Sequence record: PP620640
From: Escherichia phage fKMPT1
Direction: 5' to 3' (one strand)
DNA: 64,000 nt
Below are positions 3,086 through 51,659 of the stretch, piece after piece. The first letter of the stretch is position 1. Every line of letters starts with the position of its first letter. Position numbers and translations under genes: made by a program. The notes under the pieces were generated by a model. The model made no database searches. It saw only the letters and a program-made list of their open reading frames with translations, and was not told where the DNA came from.

Positions 3086-3585
3086 TGGCTGAAGTTATCT
3101 CTATTTCAAATGCTACACGAGTGCATTCGTATAGAGGTGTCCTTATCATTACTGACAAGCTATCTGTAGAGGCTGGCTCAAGGGTCAGCCTTTCAGGTTA
3201 TGTTAGTGATGGTGGAATCTCTGACGTTTTCACTATTTGCAGGTTACTTGATGCACCAATGAGTGGAAAACCGTTTATTTCAGGAAATTGTAGTGAAATT
3301 GTTAAAATTCCATTTGACAGTTCATGCCTTTTGGGTGTAAAGTTATATAACTGCGAGAATAAACGTATCAATGTTAATAGCATTGAAGCCGCTTTCATTA
3401 CCCTCGATACTGCATTTCAATCCCCAATGACAGTTAACAAAGAAACAAACAGACTTGAATACATTTTTTCACAAAATGATTACAAAGTACTTGTCAAAGG
3501 TAAAGTATATGATATGATTGTAAATGTGGTAGATGAATCTGGTAACCATTCAACAGTCCTTAAACAAAAAGTAAGGTTTAATTAA
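3085..3585 (+). CDS. Hypothetical head-associated protein
   Basis: 166-aa ORF, start overlaps portal stop (ATGA-type coupling). Confidence 0.4.
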   Translation: MAEVISISNATRVHSYRGVLIITDKLSVEAGSRVSLSGYVSDGGISDVFTICRLLDAPMSGKPFISGNCSEIVKIPFDSSCLLGVKLYNCENKRINVNSIEAAFITLDTAFQSPMTVNKETNRLEYIFSQNDYKVLVKGKVYDMIVNVVDESGNHSTVLKQKVRFN

Positions 3586-3917
3586 TGGGAACATTAACTA
3601 TTGATGGTAAGAATAAAATCCTCGCCACGCTAACCCCAACGACTATTATTTTACACAATGTAGACCCAACGGCAGACCCTACAGCAAATAAGGTTACTCA
3701 GCCAGTGGCTATTTATTTTTCTGAACCGGATAATGGCTTAATTGCCTCAGAAGACACAGTTAACATTACTGTTCCAGCTTCTGCAACGGTCTCACACTAT
3801 AGCTTGTGGGATGCTAACGATAAATGCGTGGCAACTGGTGCTCTTAGCAAACCTCAATTCTTTGCTGAAGAAGGTATCTATGTTATCTCTTCAGTCTCTG
3901 TAGATTTAAACAAATAG
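3585..3917 (+). CDS. Hypothetical head-associated protein
   Basis: 110-aa ORF translationally coupled to upstream ORF. Confidence 0.4.
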   Translation: MGTLTIDGKNKILATLTPTTIILHNVDPTADPTANKVTQPVAIYFSEPDNGLIASEDTVNITVPASATVSHYSLWDANDKCVATGALSKPQFFAEEGIYVISSVSVDLNK

Positions 3918-3928
3918 GGTGAGTAAAA

Positions 3929-5275
3929 ATGAGTTCGAATATCTTCAGACTTGCTGATAGATTATTCAACCAACCTTTACTAGCCACTGAATCATTAGCT
4001 CACTCAGCAGCAACTTATGTGAATAACAGATTGCTGGGTGATGTCCAAGCAGCAGTAAACTTTGATAAACCCAAAGGTGAAGCAAGAAGTCTTTTAAAAG
4101 TAAAAGATGATATTGCTATTATCCCTATTATGGGTGGTTTAACCCATCGTATGACATTCATTGATGCAATGTGTACGGGTGGTTTAAGCTCTTATGAGGG
4201 TTTACGCAGAGGCTTTGACGAAGCTTTAGCAGATGAGTCAATTAAGACTATTGTTCTGCATATTGATTCTGGTGGTGGTGAAGCTTCAGGTTGCTTTGAA
4301 TTAGCACGTCACATTATGGCTTCAAGAGGCCAAAAGAAAATTATTGCTTATGTAGATGAGTTCGCTTGTTCCGCTGCATATGCTCTTGCATCTTCTGCTG
4401 AAGAAATTATTGCATCACCAGATGCAGATGTTGGTTCTATCGGTGTAATCATGGTTCATCAGGAATTAACTAAGGCATTTGAAAAGAATGGCGTAACAAT
4501 TAACGTCATCAAAGCTGGTGAGTTTAAAGGTATGGGTTCACCATTCCAAGCACTTTCAGAAGAAAGCAAAGAAAGACTTCAAAAGAGAATTAATGATACC
4601 TACGCAACCTTTACAGGTTTTGTAGCTGAATCTCGTAATCTCTCTGAAGAAGCTGTAAAGAATACTGAGGCGAATGTTTATTCTGCTCAGGAAGCTCTTG
4701 AACTTGGTTTAATTAACTCAATCATGTCTCAAGATGATTTCTTAAATTACTTACAAGGTTCTGAAGAGGCTCCTGTAAGTTTAAACGTTAACAATTCAGG
4801 TGAAGAAATGACTGAACAAGAAAAGCAAGAACTAGAAACTTTGCGTCTTCAGGTTGCTCAAATGAAAGCTAAAGAACAGGAAGCTGCTTTGTCAGATTTG
4901 ACTAATAAGATTTCTGCTTCTGCTGAAGCTTTTGGATTTGATGCAAAAGAAGCTGCAACGACTATTTTAGGTGCTGGTCTTGATAACCCTCTGAGTGTTC
5001 TGTTTATGAATGCTATGGAAGGTGCTAACCAGAAACTTAATGAAACTATCGCGTCCCACGCTTCTGCAATGGAAGAAAAAGAATCAGAAATTACCAAGCT
5101 GAAAGAAACTGCTGGTGCTGTTCTTGAACATTCCAACGCTATGGAAGAAATGGGTAATGACGGCGAAGCTGATTTGGTTGAAGAAGAAAAAGAACCAGCT
5201 AAGAATGCTTCCGAAGACACCGCTGAACAACGCAAACTGGCTCTCCAGAATGCTCTAAAATCTCTTATCAAATAA
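3929..5275 (+). CDS. Prohead protease, S49 (SppA/ClpP-fold) family with C-terminal coiled-coil scaffold-like region
   Basis: 448 aa; S49-like segments HIDSGGGEASGCFELARHI and AYVDEFACSAAYALASSAEEI, VGSIGVIM; acidic/helical C-terminus; lies between portal and capsid. Confidence 0.7.
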   Translation: MSSNIFRLADRLFNQPLLATESLAHSAATYVNNRLLGDVQAAVNFDKPKGEARSLLKVKDDIAIIPIMGGLTHRMTFIDAMCTGGLSSYEGLRRGFDEALADESIKTIVLHIDSGGGEASGCFELARHIMASRGQKKIIAYVDEFACSAAYALASSAEEIIASPDADVGSIGVIMVHQELTKAFEKNGVTINVIKAGEFKGMGSPFQALSEESKERLQKRINDTYATFTGFVAESRNLSEEAVKNTEANVYSAQEALELGLINSIMSQDDFLNYLQGSEEAPVSLNVNNSGEEMTEQEKQELETLRLQVAQMKAKEQEAALSDLTNKISASAEAFGFDAKEAATTILGAGLDNPLSVLFMNAMEGANQKLNETIASHASAMEEKESEITKLKETAGAVLEHSNAMEEMGNDGEADLVEEEKEPAKNASEDTAEQRKLALQNALKSLIK

Positions 5276-28961: not shown

Positions 28962-29195
28962 TTAAAATGATAAGTCAATATTGATACGTTCACCCTTAAG
29001 GACTCCTGTACGGTCCCTTGCAATCTTACCGTCAACAATAAGGATATGCGCAGACCTTAAAGATTCACTATTAAAACCTTTTACGAACTTACTAGGCATA
29101 ACTACAATAAGCATCTCTTGAATCAACTCTGGAGTGTAGCAGTTGTCGTGAAGTTGCTGAATAACGTCTGCAAGTGTCATTTTTGATGTCTCCAA
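28962..29195 (-). CDS. Small protein, paralog 1 of a two-member family
   Basis: 77 aa; alignable over full length with 29383..29601 product (shared ...DGKIA(R/K)D(R/K)TG.LKGER(I/V)NI...). Confidence 0.45.
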   Translation of the reverse strand: METSKMTLADVIQQLHDNCYTPELIQEMLIVVMPSKFVKGFNSESLRSAHILIVDGKIARDRTGVLKGERINIDLSF

Positions 29196-29386
29196 TACTC
29201 AATGTCAATAAGTTCTTGTGCAATGCTTTTCAGATTACCTTTCAAGAAAACCTTCTCAGAATCTGAAAGAGATGAATTGTCAATTAACCTGTTCATTCTC
29301 TCAAACAACTTCTGCTTACGATTCTTGATAGTTTCCTTTGAAGCACCTTTCATCATCGCTGCATGGGTTCTTCCACGGTGGCTCAT
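29177..29386 (-). CDS. Small basic protein
   Basis: 69 aa, Lys/Arg-rich. Confidence 0.35.
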   Translation of the reverse strand: MSHRGRTHAAMMKGASKETIKNRKQKLFERMNRLIDNSSLSDSEKVFLKGNLKSIAQELIDIEYWRHQK

Positions 29387-29601
29387 AGTAAAGTCTCAAT
29401 GTTTACACGCTCACCTTTTAAGTAGCCTGTCTTGTCTTTTGCGATTTTGCCTCCAGCAATAAAGATATCAACTCTACGTAGAACTTCAGGGTTTACCTTC
29501 AAATTCCTACAGCTACTGCAAAGAACAATAAACATCCCTTCAATCTCTTTTTGAGAGTAACCTGCACATTGCAACTGAACTTCAATCTCTGAAAGCGTCA
29601 T
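29383..29601 (-). CDS. Small protein, paralog 2 of a two-member family
   Basis: 72 aa; paralogous to 28962..29195 product. Confidence 0.45.
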   Translation of the reverse strand: MTLSEIEVQLQCAGYSQKEIEGMFIVLCSSCRNLKVNPEVLRRVDIFIAGGKIAKDKTGYLKGERVNIETLL

Positions 29602-29652
29602 GTGACCTCCTATATAAGATATTGTATATGGTACTCTTCCATGAGCACCTTG

Positions 29653-30156
29653 TCAAGATAGTTTTGCAAACTCTCCGTGGAGTTTTATAGCAGCTTCACA
29701 GTAAGCTTTATGGGCTTCTTCAGGTGTATCAAATAGACCAAGTGATGACCTTTTACCTCTGCATGTTATAGTCGCCCTCCACTTATTGCAGTCTTTAAAG
29801 TAATGAACACCCTTGTAACCTGATTTGTTAGTCGTCTGCTTTACCCTGTTTTGAGCGTTTCCATATTTATCGGTCTCCCTAAGATTAGAAATGTGATTAT
29901 TACTCCTGTTGCCATCAATGTGGTCTATCATCTTAGTAGGTTTGTAACCATGCTCAAACCACCAAACAAGGTGATGCACTTTTATTACAACATCTTTGAA
30001 TTTAAGCACTTTGTAACCATAAGCATCACTTCCTCCGGCAACCTGACCAGCTTTAGCTTGTCTATTCCTATCATACCTGTTGTAGAAGACCCCTTTATCG
30101 GGGTCGTAAATAAAGTTGTCCTTGTAATCTTGAAGTGTTAGTGAACGGCGTACCAT
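29653..30156 (-). CDS. HNH homing endonuclease with AP2-type DNA-binding domain
   Basis: 167 aa; HNH_3-like motif MIDHIDGNRSNNHISNLRETDKYGNAQNR and AP2-like SGYKGVHYFKDCNKWRATI...LGLFDTPEEAHKAY; immediately downstream of intron-containing polymerase gene. Confidence 0.75.
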   Translation of the reverse strand: MVRRSLTLQDYKDNFIYDPDKGVFYNRYDRNRQAKAGQVAGGSDAYGYKVLKFKDVVIKVHHLVWWFEHGYKPTKMIDHIDGNRSNNHISNLRETDKYGNAQNRVKQTTNKSGYKGVHYFKDCNKWRATITCRGKRSSLGLFDTPEEAHKAYCEAAIKLHGEFAKLS

Positions 30157-30689
30157 GTTTTACCTACCTTACCAGTACCCGTGACAAGTGTCTTACTCTT
30201 TAATCCAAGATTTTTTGATGCTTGACCATACATTCTATCAATAATCTCCTTAACATCTGGTACAGCTTTTGTTGGAACCTCTAAAGAAACTTCGTCGTGG
30301 TAACTACAGACCCATCTAGCACCAATAGCTGGTTTCCTACCATTTAGAACTGTAAGTTTTCGCTCTGTTAACTCTCTATTAGCCAAGTTAATCCCCTCAT
30401 TCTGTACCTGCGCCTCACTACCCATGAGTGTGAAATTCAATAACTTATGTGGAGATTTACACCATAACCACGCTCCAGCGACTTTGATATAACCACCTTT
30501 GGCAATTGCAGAAGTTTTTCCAAAAACCTCTTCAAGTGCTTTCTTAGTTGCTTTGAAGTCTTCCTCTAACCTATCAAGCAGCTTTTTAATCTTAGGTAGA
30601 CGTACAAAGTAAGTTTGTTTAGTCAATGCACCTTCTTCCGTAGATGATGCCTTGATAGTTTTTGCAAACTTCTCGTCTCCAGCACCGAA
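30138..30689 (-). CDS. DNA polymerase, family A (T7-like), exon 2 (5' boundary approximate)
   Basis: Contains FGAGDEKFA (second half of motif B, cf. T7 YGAGDEK) and motif C YHDEV; no in-frame ATG or RBS at its 5' end, stop codon 4 codons upstream. Confidence 0.65.
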   Translation of the reverse strand, partial: FGAGDEKFAKTIKASSTEEGALTKQTYFVRLPKIKKLLDRLEEDFKATKKALEEVFGKTSAIAKGGYIKVAGAWLWCKSPHKLLNFTLMGSEAQVQNEGINLANRELTERKLTVLNGRKPAIGARWVCSYHDEVSLEVPTKAVPDVKEIIDRMYGQASKNLGLKSKTLVTGTGKVGKTWYAVH

Positions 30690-30965
30690 CAATACATCTG
30701 GTCAATACACTCGCAAGGTGTACCAGTTCTCTTATGAACTTCTCCGCATTTCTACGGAGTGTCGGACTATATCACGTAGCAGGATGCTACCGTTGCACTT
30801 GGGAATGGTCATTAGCTTACCACCCTACTCTACTCAGTTCATACGTTAAGTATGCTTTTCGATAGTCTCTGAACGTTCCTCTCAAGAGGCTTCGCTGCTG
30901 ATTACCGTATCTTCTCAGACTTAGGCTTCCAGCAATTCACAACGTTTTACATGCGCCACTGACGC
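30690..30965 (-). mobile_element. Group I self-splicing intron (ORF-less) in DNA polymerase gene; boundaries approximate
   Basis: On minus strand, in order: P-like gaattgctggaagcc (~30924-30938), Q-like aatcagcagcg (~30893-30903), R-like gttcagagactat (~30862-30874), S-like gatatagtccgac (~30761-30773) giving P7 GACTAT/ATAGTC; P9-like hairpin ctccgtagaaatgcggag; possible P1 pairing exon tttaT with intron Gtaaa; interrupts motif B of polymerase. Confidence 0.75.
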
Positions 30966-33104
30966 ATAAATGCCATTTTTGGCTTTCTTACGACCTTTTG
31001 TAATCTCGTGGAGAAGTTCCTCATCCTGTGTATACCTACAACGAACAATATCTTCTTCCTTGTTCAGACCAAAGTAAATACTGTTCAGTGTATGTGCATC
31101 AGTACCTGTGTATACTTCATAGAGGTCATTCTCAGCATCATAACGAAGGTACTTGTCAGTTTCTGGATTGAGGTACTTATCAAGATGCTTGCAATAGTAT
31201 CTTCCATCCTCTTGCTTGGTAAATTCTACTGACTCTTTACCTTGTGTTACCGCTTTAGTGAACTCTTCATCACCCATAAAGTTACAAAGAAGAACTAGCT
31301 GTGCTGAGTTTTGGTCTACAGAGATGATATCTGTCCCCTCTTCACAAGTCCACACCTCCCTCATAGGTGCTCCATAGACAGCAGCACCAGACGGTACGTT
31401 TACAATACCATATTGTGTCATACGTCCAGTTGAAGTACCAAATACCATTGCACCAGCACTAAGGCGACCATCAGGACGAATCTGGTTCAACCAACCTTTT
31501 TCATCATCCTTTGAGTTCTCAATAGTTCTGCGTCGGTGCATCAAAGTATAGTACTTAGCAATCTTCTGTCCAAGCTCACCTTCAATCGTATCATAAGATG
31601 ATTCAGTAAGTTTTGGTGAAGTACGGATTAAGCAAGGTTCAAGCAAATCTGTGTATTTCTTCACAGACCAGTTATGTTCAATGTACTGGACACCTTCATG
31701 TTCAACATAACTCAAACCACACCTTTCAACCATCTCATCCCACTTAGGATGCTTTGTAATCATCTTTTTGTTGTCTTTGAAACGACAAACTTTGACAGGA
31801 CGACCATCTGAGTCTTTCTTGTAGTTCCAGTCATCTGGAATCCAACCAACTGATTTCAAATAGTCTTTCACAACTGCTACCTGAGTCATACGAGAAACTT
31901 CGAACTCAATTGGTGTATATGGTGCATCAATCAAACCTGTGTAGCGACTTGACTCAAGCTCAAAGTGGTTAACAACATGGCTGTTATAGTACTTCACAGT
32001 TTTAACTGTTTTTACTGGCTTCCAATCTTTGCACTTCTTACCAATCTTTGCATTCAACTCATTGCAAATTGCACGAGCATCCTTCATTGCTACAAAACCT
32101 TCCTTGTACTCTTCACCAGTTACAGAGTTGGTTGGTGTATAGCAATTCCGCTTTTCAATGTTAAAAATCTTTGTAGTTGGCTTACCAAATGGCTTGATTT
32201 CATATGTCTGCATCTCACCGTTACGTACCTGCTGACGATACTTTGTCTTAGGGTACTTGGTAATTCTCTTCAGTCCATCTGCGTGACCAAATGCTTCAAC
32301 ATACTCATTCCAAGCTTTTGCAAACTCTTCTCCAGTGACTTTAACTTTGGTCTTGATAGTTGGAGGAAGATGTGGTTCAACTTCTGAAGCAAGCTCATTA
32401 GTCAACTTGTCAAGTTCCTTTACATGGAACTCCATAAGCTCTTTATCAGCTTTCCAACCATTGATAGCTTGTTGACTCATCCAGAAAGATGTTTCTTTAG
32501 CTCGCATGTAGGTTTCATAAGTATCTACGCCACACTTCTTCAGCTTGAGATATTCATTATCCAGTGCACGTTTAGTTTTGGCGTTAATACGGATATCTTC
32601 TACAACACGAGTGAAGATTTCTGCATTCCACACACCCCAATGTTCAATCTCTGGTTTACGTACACCGACACGAGCACCCCATGCAGCCAAGCCATGAGCA
32701 CCTTTATAGCCTTTTGGAGTTGGTCTATCCATCCATTGAACACGAGATTGGATAAGAGAATCCTGAAAGAAATTACTCCACGGCTTACACTTTGGATTAT
32801 CAAAGTTCCACAAATCAGGTGCAATGTGATTGAAAACCCACCAGTCATACCCCAGACCATTATGGATGCAAAGTCGTTTTGCCTTTAACGCAAACTCAAC
32901 ACCTTCACGCAAGCCACCCTTAATGTACTTGGTATACTTGTGACCGAGGATAGGCTCATCTGTAAAGACCCATACAGGTGGCTCTTCATCGTCAGATTTA
33001 TAGTCTGCGAAAGCCATTACGTGTACTTTAGTGAACTCAAGGAGTAAACCATCAGTTTCTGTATCGCCAACTAAATGTAAGTTTTTAAAATCTACGTTTT
33101 CCAT
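30966..33104 (-). CDS. DNA polymerase, family A (T7-like), exon 1 (3' boundary approximate)
   Basis: 3'-5' exonuclease Exo I motif VGDTETDGL; motif A-like DQNSAQLVL; ends in RKKAKNGIY (first half of motif B); likely true start at second in-frame ATG (MENVD) preceded by GAGGGAG RBS. Confidence 0.75.
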
Positions 33105-33361
33105 TTTTACTCCCTCTAAAATCATTAACCACATACATTACTGCAAAAAATTATAAAAAGCAAGTTGACAATGTACTTGACAAGGTGTTAATCTTTGCGA
33201 AGTGGGTTTTTACTTAAAAGGTTACTTAACAGTTTAACTATACAGATACTTTAAAACTCTTAAAAGATTATTTAATAGTTTTTAAAAAGCTTTAAAGTAT
33301 AACGTATAGAATACGTTAAGATAAAAGATTAAAACTTAATAGTTACTTAAAAGAGGCTTAC

Positions 33362-38984: not shown

Positions 38985-40025
38985 ATGGAGAAGTATACAC
39001 TAACAAAACTTCCCGATTCAGTTACACATGTCTTTATCGACTCTGACAGTATTGCCTATAAAGGTGCTTGTGTAGTTGAGAAAGCAAAATATAAGTATGT
39101 CAATAAACTCACAGCAGAAGAATCTGAACCATTTGATAATGCAAAAGATGCTGCAAGATGGTTAGCAGACCAGAGAATCCTTGTGGAAGAACTTGGCCTG
39201 ACATTTGATGAAGATGAATGGGAAAGACAGACTTGGAAAGAGGCTAAGAGTGAAAAAGAAGCTATCATGGCTACTCAGCAGGTTCTTCAGGAATGGCTTA
39301 AGGTTGTTGGTAAAGAAAGAACTTGGGTAGGTTATTTAACAGAGAAGGGTGTACATAAACATAAAGACATTAAAGGTCTTGAGCACCAATATCAAGGTAA
39401 CCGTAAAGATGCTGTCACACCAACACACTTAGTTGCTTGCCGTGAATATCTTCTGTCAAGACCAGAGTTTAAGCTTCTCCGTGGAGGATTTGAAGCCGAT
39501 TCCATCGTAATTGCTAAAGCTGAAAAGATGGGTAAGAAGGCCGCTCTTATGAGTATTGACAAAGACCTTCGACAAGCTGAAGGGACTTATTGTATTGATA
39601 TGACTTATGAAAAATCACCACTAATTTTTATCGCTGATAATAATGTTGGTAACATCTGGGATTGCCCTATCAAATCAAAACCAAAAGCTGCAAAAACAGT
39701 TGGTGTAGGTTTTAAATTCTTGTGTTATCAGGCTGTTGCTGGAGATAATGCAGATAACTACTTCGGTCTTAAAGGTGCTGGAAAAGTAGCTGTGATGAAT
39801 GCTTTAGATGGTAAAGAGACCTATAAAGAGTGCCTTGACGCTATCTATGAACTCTATGCTAAAAAAGAGTCTTACACCTATGTATCATGGGATGGGCAGA
39901 CTGTTACAAAAACACCATTAGAGTTAATGGAGCAGCATTTCTGGGTGGCATATCAAGAGAGAAATCCAAAAGATAATTTCTCTTTTAAGAAATATAATTG
40001 GGAGCCGTGTATGAATGAAGATTAA
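38985..40025 (+). CDS. 5'-3' exonuclease / flap endonuclease (FEN family)
   Basis: 346 aa; N-terminal FIDSDSIAYKG and helix-hairpin-helix-like GDNADNYFGLKGAGKVA resembling FEN/Pol I 5'-nuclease motifs. Confidence 0.6.
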   Translation: MEKYTLTKLPDSVTHVFIDSDSIAYKGACVVEKAKYKYVNKLTAEESEPFDNAKDAARWLADQRILVEELGLTFDEDEWERQTWKEAKSEKEAIMATQQVLQEWLKVVGKERTWVGYLTEKGVHKHKDIKGLEHQYQGNRKDAVTPTHLVACREYLLSRPEFKLLRGGFEADSIVIAKAEKMGKKAALMSIDKDLRQAEGTYCIDMTYEKSPLIFIADNNVGNIWDCPIKSKPKAAKTVGVGFKFLCYQAVAGDNADNYFGLKGAGKVAVMNALDGKETYKECLDAIYELYAKKESYTYVSWDGQTVTKTPLELMEQHFWVAYQERNPKDNFSFKKYNWEPCMNED

Positions 40026-40512
40026 AGGATTTGGCAATTGTCCCACCTATGGTCATTGGGTATCTTTGTGTGGGGAAGTTGACCCCACTAAACATTTTGG
40101 TTTTGTCTATTTAGTATACTGTAAGAAAACCGGACAATATTATATCGGAAAGAAACAGCTTAATAGTGTGACCAAAAGAAAAGTTGCTGGCAAGACTCGG
40201 AAGAAGGTAGTCACTAAGGAAAGTGATTGGATGACTTATGAGACTTCTTCTGAGTATGTTAAAAAAGATATTGAGAGCTTTGGAAAAGAATTTTTTGACT
40301 TTTACATTATTCAAACCTACTACACAAAAGGTGGTCTAGTTTATGGTGAAGCAAACCTTCAACATAAATTCGATGTAATGACAAAAAGGATTGACTCTAA
40401 GCTCAGACTCTTCTACAATGCCAACATTGCAGCAATTAAGTTTATCACTAAAGAAACTTATGAAGATGCTGAAAAAAGAATCCATAAGGTAATGAAAGCA
40501 AATTGTGCTTGA
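40015..40512 (+). CDS. GIY-YIG-like endonuclease (candidate free-standing homing endonuclease)
   Basis: 165 aa; GFVYLVYCKKTGQYYIGKK resembles the GIY-(10 aa)-YIG module; basic region follows. Confidence 0.35.
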   Translation: MKIKGFGNCPTYGHWVSLCGEVDPTKHFGFVYLVYCKKTGQYYIGKKQLNSVTKRKVAGKTRKKVVTKESDWMTYETSSEYVKKDIESFGKEFFDFYIIQTYYTKGGLVYGEANLQHKFDVMTKRIDSKLRLFYNANIAAIKFITKETYEDAEKRIHKVMKANCA

Positions 40513-51125: not shown

Positions 51126-51659
51126 ATGTATCTGGCAAACCTTAAGCGCTCTGCTGCAATGTCTGTCCTTCGTCTTGACTTTGATGAGCGTCAAGAATTT
51201 ATAGACTCCCACAAGTATGACCCTTCAAATTCTAATCACATGGTTCTTTGGAATCGTGGAAGCTTCCGTGATAAATCCCTCTTCAGATACTACCCACATT
51301 ACACCATTGATAACCTGTATGAGTACTGCGTTGTCAAAAACACTATTACAGTACTTAATAAACTATGCAAATACTCTGACAAGAGAGCCTTCACATTAGG
51401 TCACCACACACCTGTTACAAAAGGTGGCGAGCATCACTGTACAAACTGGTTTATCCAAACTAAAGCTGATAATCAGAAGCAAGGGGATAACCTACTAAGT
51501 ACTCCTAAGATGACCTATGAAGAGCAAGAGAAATATATCAAAAATAATATGCCAGATGTGCTTGACAACAACTATACAGATTTGGCAATATCTCTCCTGT
51601 TGAAGTTCGAGACAGTTTATAGGGCAACTTACAATGGCAGTAACAAACGTAACTTTTGA
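51126..51659 (+). CDS. HNH endonuclease-like protein (candidate)
   Basis: 177 aa; LGHHTPVTKGGEHHCTNWFIQTKADNQKQGD fits the HNH pattern HH..P..KGG....N.......N.K.GD. Confidence 0.45.
   Translation: MYLANLKRSAAMSVLRLDFDERQEFIDSHKYDPSNSNHMVLWNRGSFRDKSLFRYYPHYTIDNLYEYCVVKNTITVLNKLCKYSDKRAFTLGHHTPVTKGGEHHCTNWFIQTKADNQKQGDNLLSTPKMTYEEQEKYIKNNMPDVLDNNYTDLAISLLLKFETVYRATYNGSNKRNF

Follow-up and report, generated by a model that had tools for sequence, protein, structure and literature searches.

A putative free-standing HNH-AP2 homing endonuclease gene abutting the intron-bearing DNA polymerase gene of a Felix O1-like phage

Introduction

Among the described systems close to the locus treated here is MobE of phage T4, which promotes trans homing by the nrdB intron, whose own endonuclease I-TevIII is defunct; co-conversion has a range of ~2 kb and a cut at the intron site is unnecessary (PMC2790892). 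The present locus lies in Escherichia phage fKMPT1 (PP620640), within a stretch of 64,000 nucleotides (nt) that is called the window below. An open reading frame (ORF) on the minus strand of the window, at positions 29653–30156, starts with ATG and encodes a protein of 167 amino acids (aa) with HNH and AP2 domains, and it abuts a DNA polymerase gene which carries a group I intron without an ORF. An initial annotation, made from the sequence alone, had taken gene and intron to be collaborating partners. Following comparison with related phages we favor, with moderate confidence, a different reading, namely that the gene is a free-standing homing HNH-AP2 cassette and that the intron is a separate selfish element, most likely with an EndoVII-type cognate enzyme that is encoded inside it in some relatives.

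The genome of Felix O1 was described in 2010 as having six HNH endonuclease genes and no introns (PMC3185647), and two introns have been reported in the genome of SPJ41, a Felixounavirus (PMC9951933). In UAB_Phi87, HB-2014 and JH2 it is nrdD which is interrupted by an endonuclease gene (PMC4837284). The intron-encoded proteins of Berlin, YpP-G and LUZ24 have been placed in the DHHRN clade of homing endonucleases (PMC6083498). A literature search for an analysis of the polymerase intron of the genus Felixounavirus, its endonuclease gene or the cassette alleles found passing remarks only.

Results and discussion

The HNH-AP2 endonuclease gene

The features of the locus are collected in Table 1. 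The assignment of the 167-aa protein to the HNH_3/AP2 type, made in the initial annotation, was confirmed by the profile search proposed there, with both domains passing their curated Pfam thresholds. HNH_3 (PF13392) scored 46.1 bits (cut-off 24.8) at aa 59–98 and AP2 (PF00847), which is located C-terminal to it, scored 41.7 bits (cut-off 33.3). The protein also matches PHROG 99, "HNH endonuclease" (4.7e-63). The top match among solved structures is I-HmuI (1U3E), a weak one (E=3e-4) that spans only 55 residues; residues 50–105 of I-HmuI align, with D74, H75, N87 and N96 corresponding to D78, H79, N91 and N100. Across the five to six HNH-AP2 alleles compared, D78, H79, N87, N91 and N103 are invariant, and the candidates for the metal-binding Asn of the domain are N100 or N103. 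Every copy of the gene is intact, and the ratio of nonsynonymous to synonymous substitution rates (0.04–0.10 against six orthologs) places it under purifying selection. By these features it is an intact gene of the free-standing homing endonuclease type, with predicted nuclease activity and putative homing.

A tblastn search for HNH-AP2 paralogs inside the window found none. The 4.4 kb around the gene are 100% identical, at equal coordinates, to Salmonella phage fBSPA4 (OR711204.1), where the ORF is annotated as "putative HNH endonuclease". The gene itself is thus routine and already annotated, and the population-level picture around it is of more interest. The region is shared by 259 phage records, nearly all of them from Felix O1-like myoviruses of the genus Felixounavirus, and the loci compared (given L numbers) comprised 31 from viral contigs, 19 from metagenomes and a dozen from GenBank.

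Table 1. Features of the polymerase–endonuclease locus, of related loci and of the other nuclease-like genes (window positions unless a locus is given).
Feature	Coordinates	Strand	Basis
Free-standing HNH-AP2 endonuclease gene, type A allele	29653–30156	−	ORF list, Pfam, orthology with Felix O1 ORF95
HNH_3 catalytic domain with D78-H79, N91, N100/N103	29863–29982	−	Pfam, I-HmuI alignment
AP2 DNA-binding domain, aa 112–161	29674–29823	−	Pfam; matches to plant AP2/ERF structures
3′-terminal 80–106 nt of the gene, ~90–97% common to the alleles	29653–29758	−	Sequence comparison
Sigma-70-like promoter of downstream genes, TTGACA-17-TACCAT	29628–29656	−	Promoter scan, 10/12 match
Overlap of polymerase stop with HNH start, 19 nt, ATGGTACGCCGTTCACTAA	30138–30156	−	Sequence
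DNA polymerase exon 1, 721 codons	30962–33125	−	Start per GenBank; alternative ATG at 33134
ORF-less group I intron, 267 nt	30695–30961	−	Rfam RF00028, Felix O1 polymerase alignment
DNA polymerase exon 2, 185 codons	30138–30694	−	Pfam DNA_pol_A, Felix O1 alignment, splice check
Y_A block, last 457 nt of polymerase	30138–30594	−	Segment identity matrices, diversity profile
EndoVII-type intron ORF in relatives	L007:3306–3788; also L008, L013, L016; L014:3327–3787		
SegE-like GIY-YIG protein	40015–40512	+	SegE_GIY-YIG match, 2.4e-27
"HNH-like" ORF, PHROG 3500 (unknown function)	51126–51659	+	Weak PHROG HNH match, 9e-4

Insertion site and cassette alleles

The overlap of the HNH gene with the 3′ end of polymerase exon 2, which had been noted initially, was found as described and recurs unchanged in every type A locus, even in the divergent L059. 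The HNH start is closely preceded by a Shine-Dalgarno-like AAGGTAGGT, and in view of this motif and of the overlap the gene is probably read from the same transcript as the polymerase. At the other end of the gene, the stop codon TGA sits within the −35 box of the downstream promoter and therefore marks the right edge of the insertion. Genomes without the HNH gene have pol-TAA-TTAGTA-TTGACAAGG... (more fully TTGACAAGGTGCTCA...) at this junction, the next gene following 62 nt past the polymerase stop, while HNH-bearing genomes read ...AAGTTGACAAGG... (more fully ...AAACTAAGTTGACAAGGTGCTCA...). The empty site is TAA-TTAGTA-TTGACA, and the stop of the cassette falls in TTGACA. The indel between the polymerase stop and TTGACA is precise, which indicates a clean insertion at one point.

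This one exact point, which lies after the polymerase stop and before the next promoter, is occupied by at least five HNH-AP2 alleles: A, the allele of the window (167 aa), B (171 aa), C (177 aa), D (175 aa) and E (183–188 aa). The others are 37–50% identical to A, and all terminate in ...EEAHKAYCEAAIKLHGEFAKLS. Their common 3′-terminal stretch (Table 1) is likely to be the right-hand recombination boundary of the cassette; 130 further records match just query positions 380/407–485 of the type A gene. A cassette is present in at least 147 of the 259 records and full-length type A DNA in 17 database records, counts which, like the other record counts given here, are inflated by near-identical isolates and GenBank/RefSeq duplicates. 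Among the cleanly classified IMG/VR and metagenome loci (L004–L053), 17 of 41 lack it. Among close relatives, the cassette thus shows the sporadic presence and absence at a fixed intergenic site, with clean boundaries, that characterizes homing genes.

The same observations bear on whether the protein might have been co-opted for a non-homing role, such as exclusion of competitors or regulation of neighboring genes, or might be an inactive relic. Strong purifying selection is compatible with any useful function, and a cassette whose stop codon lies in the downstream promoter could affect the expression of the next genes. However, it is absent from ~40% of close relatives and exists as five diverged alleles at one site, a pattern therefore of a selfish cassette and not of a core function, and the catalytic residues are intact, which speaks against a relic. 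We regard co-option or decay as very improbable.

Two small ORFs that follow the HNH gene, at 29383–29601 and 28962–29195 and both on the minus strand, are paralogous (45% identity, E=9e-18) and differ among relatives in order and copy number; the copy at 29383–29601 is missing in Felix O1 and tootiki.

The group I intron of the polymerase gene

The boundaries of the intron were set by alignment to the uninterrupted polymerase of Felix O1. It follows the exon sequence ...TATGCGT, and its 3′ end is ...AGATG, with G as the terminal nucleotide. The Rfam model RF00028 scored 59.9 bits (gathering score 50), the single Rfam intron match in the window. Direct reading of the sequence gives a P1 helix in which exon AUGCGU pairs with GCGCAU at intron nt 6–11, with a U.G pair at the 5′ splice site. 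Predicted splicing yields an open polymerase of 906 aa that is collinear with that of Felix O1, ...KNGIYALLFGAGDEK being motif B. By the covariance match, the P1 U.G pair, the terminal G and the restored frame, the element is a group I intron. Minimum-free-energy folding of the intron alone was not informative (z = −1.07), and claims about structure therefore rest on the covariance model and on the direct reading of P1, P10 and P6a. The intron was correctly described in the initial annotation as free of any ORF. The HNH gene lies downstream of it at a distance of 538 nt.

At its gathering threshold Rfam gave no match for the Si3 intron with its ORF, nor for the polymerase intron of Yepe2, because inserted ORFs break the model. 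Whether relatives carry the intron was therefore scored from blastn matches and from the spacing of two polymerase motifs. Si3, JH2, VpaE1, EC6 and others have an insert of ~535 nt between intron nt 77 and 80, at the UUGA tetraloop of the hairpin labeled P6a by Rfam (window positions 30882–30885). The insert codes for a 160-aa protein with the CxxC...DHDH...CxxC motif of endonuclease VII (DHHRN), and tblastn recovered this ORF over its full length, with an identity of at least 78%, from 39 records, which is ~40% of the intron-bearing relatives. Its identity to Endo VII-motif ORFs is ~51%, both for those in polymerase gene 5 of Yersinia phages of the T7-like group and for that of LUZ24. In VpaE1 (L014) the ORF is frameshifted, as expected of a decaying homing gene. 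It is most likely this EndoVII-type (DHHRN) protein, rather than HNH-AP2, that is the cognate enzyme of the intron.

The annotation of the interrupted gene in public records is uneven. Many GenBank records give the split polymerase as two "DNA polymerase" coding sequences (CDSs), with exon 1 running into the intron, and phage Meda (MH586731) alone annotates it as a joined CDS. The two parts of such "DNA polymerase (x2)" annotations should be merged into one CDS that spans the intron. Record GEC_vB_BS (L062, MW006475.1) is unusual at 3501–3958 of its locus, where the downstream promoter comes almost immediately after exon 1 and an intron-like piece. The seeming loss of exon 2 is probably an artefact of assembly or editing; its sister MG969407 has a full Si3-like arrangement. 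The presence of this Felix O1-like region in record GU169904, "Staphylococcus phage SA1", points to a mixed assembly.

Distribution of the intron and the cassette

The presence of the intron was read with a 301-nt probe spanning its site, an alignment in one piece signifying no intron and one in two pieces an intron. Such a comparison had been proposed initially as a check on whether intron and HNH gene are absent together, and its outcome goes against the partnership: the type A gene occurs mostly without the intron, in 15 of 17 records, which include both Felix O1 records, FO1a, P219 and Danish wastewater coliphages. Type A is accompanied by the intron (probe pieces 267 nt apart) in fBSPA4 and tootiki only, the probe results having been borne out by inspection of sequences, and L059, a divergent relative with an HNH gene 83% identical, has an uninterrupted polymerase. 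The intron is present in 96 records, ~94 of which carry another HNH allele or none, and its association with type C (32 of 42 records) is much closer than that with type A (2 of 17; Fisher p=7e-6). The type A allele is not tied to the intron; were its enzyme to cleave at the intron-less insertion site, the majority of carriers would be attacking their own genomes. What stands of the collaborative arrangement first proposed is a free-standing gene close to an ORF-less intron; a specific partnership of the two is not supported. On these counts, the pairing of intron and type A in fBSPA4 and tootiki is a rare recombinant combination and not an obligate collaboration.

True collaborative homing, in which the HNH-AP2 enzyme would be paired with the ORF-less intron, has precedents in psbA/F-CphI of S-PM2 (PMC6083498) and in two phage systems (PMC3984707). 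A run of synonymous differences at the insertion site, from −8 to +14, is as expected of an arms race between endonuclease and target, and types A and C are confined to genomes that have the intron or else one certain intron-less variant of the site. Against this, not only the 15 type A carriers but also 10 of the 42 type C carriers are intron-less and would require some other immunity, while the intron-less variant is common to type A, B and C genomes and so is not specific to an allele. The common haplotype, moreover, shows neither the ORF-less intron nor the "Felix-type" site variant, which are the products predicted by such homing, and an arms race at the site is more simply explained by the intron's own EndoVII-type enzyme. 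Taken together, these points make collaboration of the two elements improbable.

A second probe, a synthetic one joining the intron to the downstream promoter, gives a single match only if no cassette lies between. It was found joined in 26 clear records, all with an ORF-containing intron, its one other joined match being the anomalous GEC_vB_BS, apparently without exon 2. With this search, an ORF-less intron without a downstream HNH cassette was never found among the ~57 records with an ORF-less intron. The cassette is accordingly absent from 26 of ~39 ORF-containing introns as against none of ~57 ORF-less ones (Fisher p=4e-14 at record level). However, all ORF-less introns belong to a single haplotype of the polymerase near the site, X_F, and intron-less X_F records (n=28) all carry a cassette as well; the link may therefore be to the haplotype rather than to the intron. 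There are ~5 independent contexts of intron and cassette. Linkage would account for the pattern as well as dependence does. A metagenome scan added 19 loci and no new intron-bearing ones.

One further candidate was VpaE1_ev78, which at first resembled a laboratory-evolved derivative of VpaE1 with the intron swapped for an HNH cassette; the existence of a survey of coliphages from infant faecal samples suggests that "ev78" may be a naming convention instead, and the candidate was dropped.

Sequence diversity at the 3′ end of the polymerase gene

In seven pairs of intron-bearing and intron-less genomes with matched backgrounds, clustered differences were found only around the insertion site. Their positions are −8, −5, −2, −1, +2, +5, +8, +11 and +14, extending sometimes to −23 and +20; nearly all are third codon positions, and the tract of 20–45 nt is centered on the insertion site. 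As the same tract recurs beside HNH types A, B, C and E, gain and loss of the intron would be recurrent, site-centered and independent of cassette type. For fBSPA4 and L004, the intron-less type A relative nearest to it, an upper bound of ~165 nt can be put on the tract. That a type C donor had given rise to the fBSPA4 combination through a long conversion tract was considered and rejected, since fBSPA4 differs from L004 in a short tract only.

The exon flanks at 30680–30694 and 30962–30969 differ between intron-bearing and "Felix-type" intron-less alleles at each third codon position of eight codons, from −8 to +14, and all these differences are synonymous. SUSP1 and SUSP2 (L009, L010) are intron-less with a near intron-type flank, TATGCGTTACTG, which is either the ancestral state of the site or a trace of a lost intron.

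A diversity profile of 38 core-genus polymerase genes gives a contrasting picture. Nucleotide diversity is ~0.035 over the first 1.7 kb. Upstream of the intron site, at a distance of 400 nt, it rises abruptly to 0.15–0.20, and its maximum of ~0.30 is reached at +300 to +500 from that site, just before the cassette. The last ~950 nt of the spliced polymerase (window 30138–31360) are thus 5–8 fold more diverse, and remain so through to the stop. Several deep haplotypes occur in this zone (X_F/X_c, Y_A, Y_C and others), and genomes carry them in shuffled combinations. Y_A is found only beside the type A gene and is 65–71% identical to the other haplotypes, compared with 95–98% for the upstream polymerase. 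Its exclusive association with type A, together with divergence that rises toward the cassette, is the signature of co-conversion. We infer that the target of the enzyme is nearer to the 3′ end of the polymerase gene than to the intron site, and that the hypervariable end would be a footprint of cassette-driven conversion from diverged donors.

These patterns also bear on a dependence in trans, whereby the ORF-less intron would need any nearby HNH-AP2 cassette and the cassette would need no intron. Such a dependence would agree with the joined-probe counts, with the occurrence of the ORF-less intron beside four cassette types and with the spacing of 538 nt, which is inside the 950-nt hypervariable zone and within the co-conversion range of ~2 kb (PMC2790892). 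On the other hand, intron-bearing and intron-less pairs differ in the short tract at the insertion site and not in long cassette-derived tracts, and the 28 intron-less records of the same haplotype always have the cassette too. The evidence of the counts becomes weak once relatedness is taken into account, because it comes from the ~5 independent contexts only. Dependence in trans is therefore a possible account of the pattern, if an unlikely one. It is a speculative and rather doubtful extension that two stages of mobile-intron evolution coexist, in complementary distribution, in Felix O1-like phages, one ORF-less and accompanied by a cassette of any of four types, the other bearing EndoVII and usually without a cassette. 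If this were true, a free-standing cassette would keep an enzyme-less intron in circulation by mobilizing it in trans.

Under the favored reading, in which cassette and intron are separate elements, the enzyme would in a mixed infection nick or cut a co-infecting genome without this allele, either within the final few hundred nucleotides of the polymerase gene or else at the empty site. Repair by recombination would then copy the cassette plus the adjoining 3′ segment of the polymerase gene, so that this segment would become hypervariable and travel with the cassette. The intron would at most be dragged along passively by a long conversion tract, in the manner of MobE-type trans homing.

Several points weigh against this reading. 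Several backgrounds show spread or loss of the ORF-less intron, which encodes no enzyme, and every genome with an ORF-less intron has an HNH-AP2 cassette, which independence of the two has to leave to linkage. The proposed cut site is drawn solely from patterns of diversity and linkage, and since the hypervariable zone takes in the intron site too, the target may lie there instead. The inflation of the record counts noted above also applies.

Other nuclease-like genes in the window

Two further free-standing nuclease-like genes had been listed in the initial annotation, and the two fared differently. The GIY-YIG assignment of the first is borne out by its SegE-like match (Table 1). The HNH signal of the second is marginal, and a Pfam search of this ORF gave no match. 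The first is present in ~228 related records, where it is often annotated as "NAD synthetase", and the second in 251 at ~86% identity; with this presence in nearly all relatives, both behave as core genes, the second a diverged one, and not as sporadic mobile endonucleases. An AP2-domain or HNH gene is inserted beside the homolog of the first in O157 typing phage 8 and VSe102.

Implications

The last kilobase of the polymerase gene appears to hold three interacting selfish elements, namely a group I intron, an EndoVII-type gene and a five-allele cassette. With hundreds of sequenced natural recombinants, and with several members that grow on E. coli K-12, these phages offer a convenient system for measuring the reach of endonuclease-driven conversion tracts. 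The system could also show whether enzyme-less introns hitch-hike on neighboring endonucleases, and how 30% nucleotide diversity at the 3′ end is tolerated by an essential polymerase. For phylogenies of Felixounavirus, the 3′ region of the polymerase gene should be masked.

Comparison with known systems

The locus resembles MobE/nrdB of T4 in that a free-standing HNH-family gene adjoins a gene with a group I intron unable to mobilize itself, and the distance between ORF-less intron and cassette, 538 nt, would suit a mechanism of the MobE type. Activity and co-inheritance with the intron have been measured for MobE, whereas the Felix-group case is known from sequence alone. Unlike the T4 case, the type A allele is mostly without the intron, and the intron polymorphism lies in short tracts centered on the site.

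From the pair of F-CphI and the psbA intron of cyanophage S-PM2 the locus differs in that the intron is missing from most genomes with the enzyme gene (15 of 17 type A records), so that the two do not go together as in a collaborative pair, where the intron would make its carrier immune to the enzyme. F-CphI is, moreover, of the EndoVII/DHHRN family, and the Felix-group counterpart of that family sits inside the intron and is not the HNH-AP2 gene beside the polymerase gene.

I-HmuI of Bacillus phage SPO1 is an HNH nicking endonuclease and likewise tied to a phage DNA polymerase gene, but it is intron-encoded, whereas the HNH-AP2 gene is free-standing. The C-terminal DNA-binding modules of I-HmuI are also different and are not AP2 domains.

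In T7-like phages the architecture is alike, with gene 5.3-type endonuclease genes immediately behind the family A polymerase gene or within its intron (PMC4925675, PMC6083498). These enzymes have the EndoVII motif, are ~51% identical to the intron ORF of the Felix group and are not homologous to HNH-AP2. Yepe2 has its polymerase intron in the same coding stretch for motif B, at a distance of ~3 codons from the insertion site of the Felix group.

A close relative of the gene itself is ORF95 of Felix O1 (NP_944955), which belongs to the six HNH genes reported for that genome (PMC3185647) and is an ortholog with 95% aa identity, the same length of 167 aa and the same overlap and promoter junction. 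Felix O1 has this gene beside an uninterrupted polymerase gene and has no introns, whereas fBSPA4 has acquired the intron.

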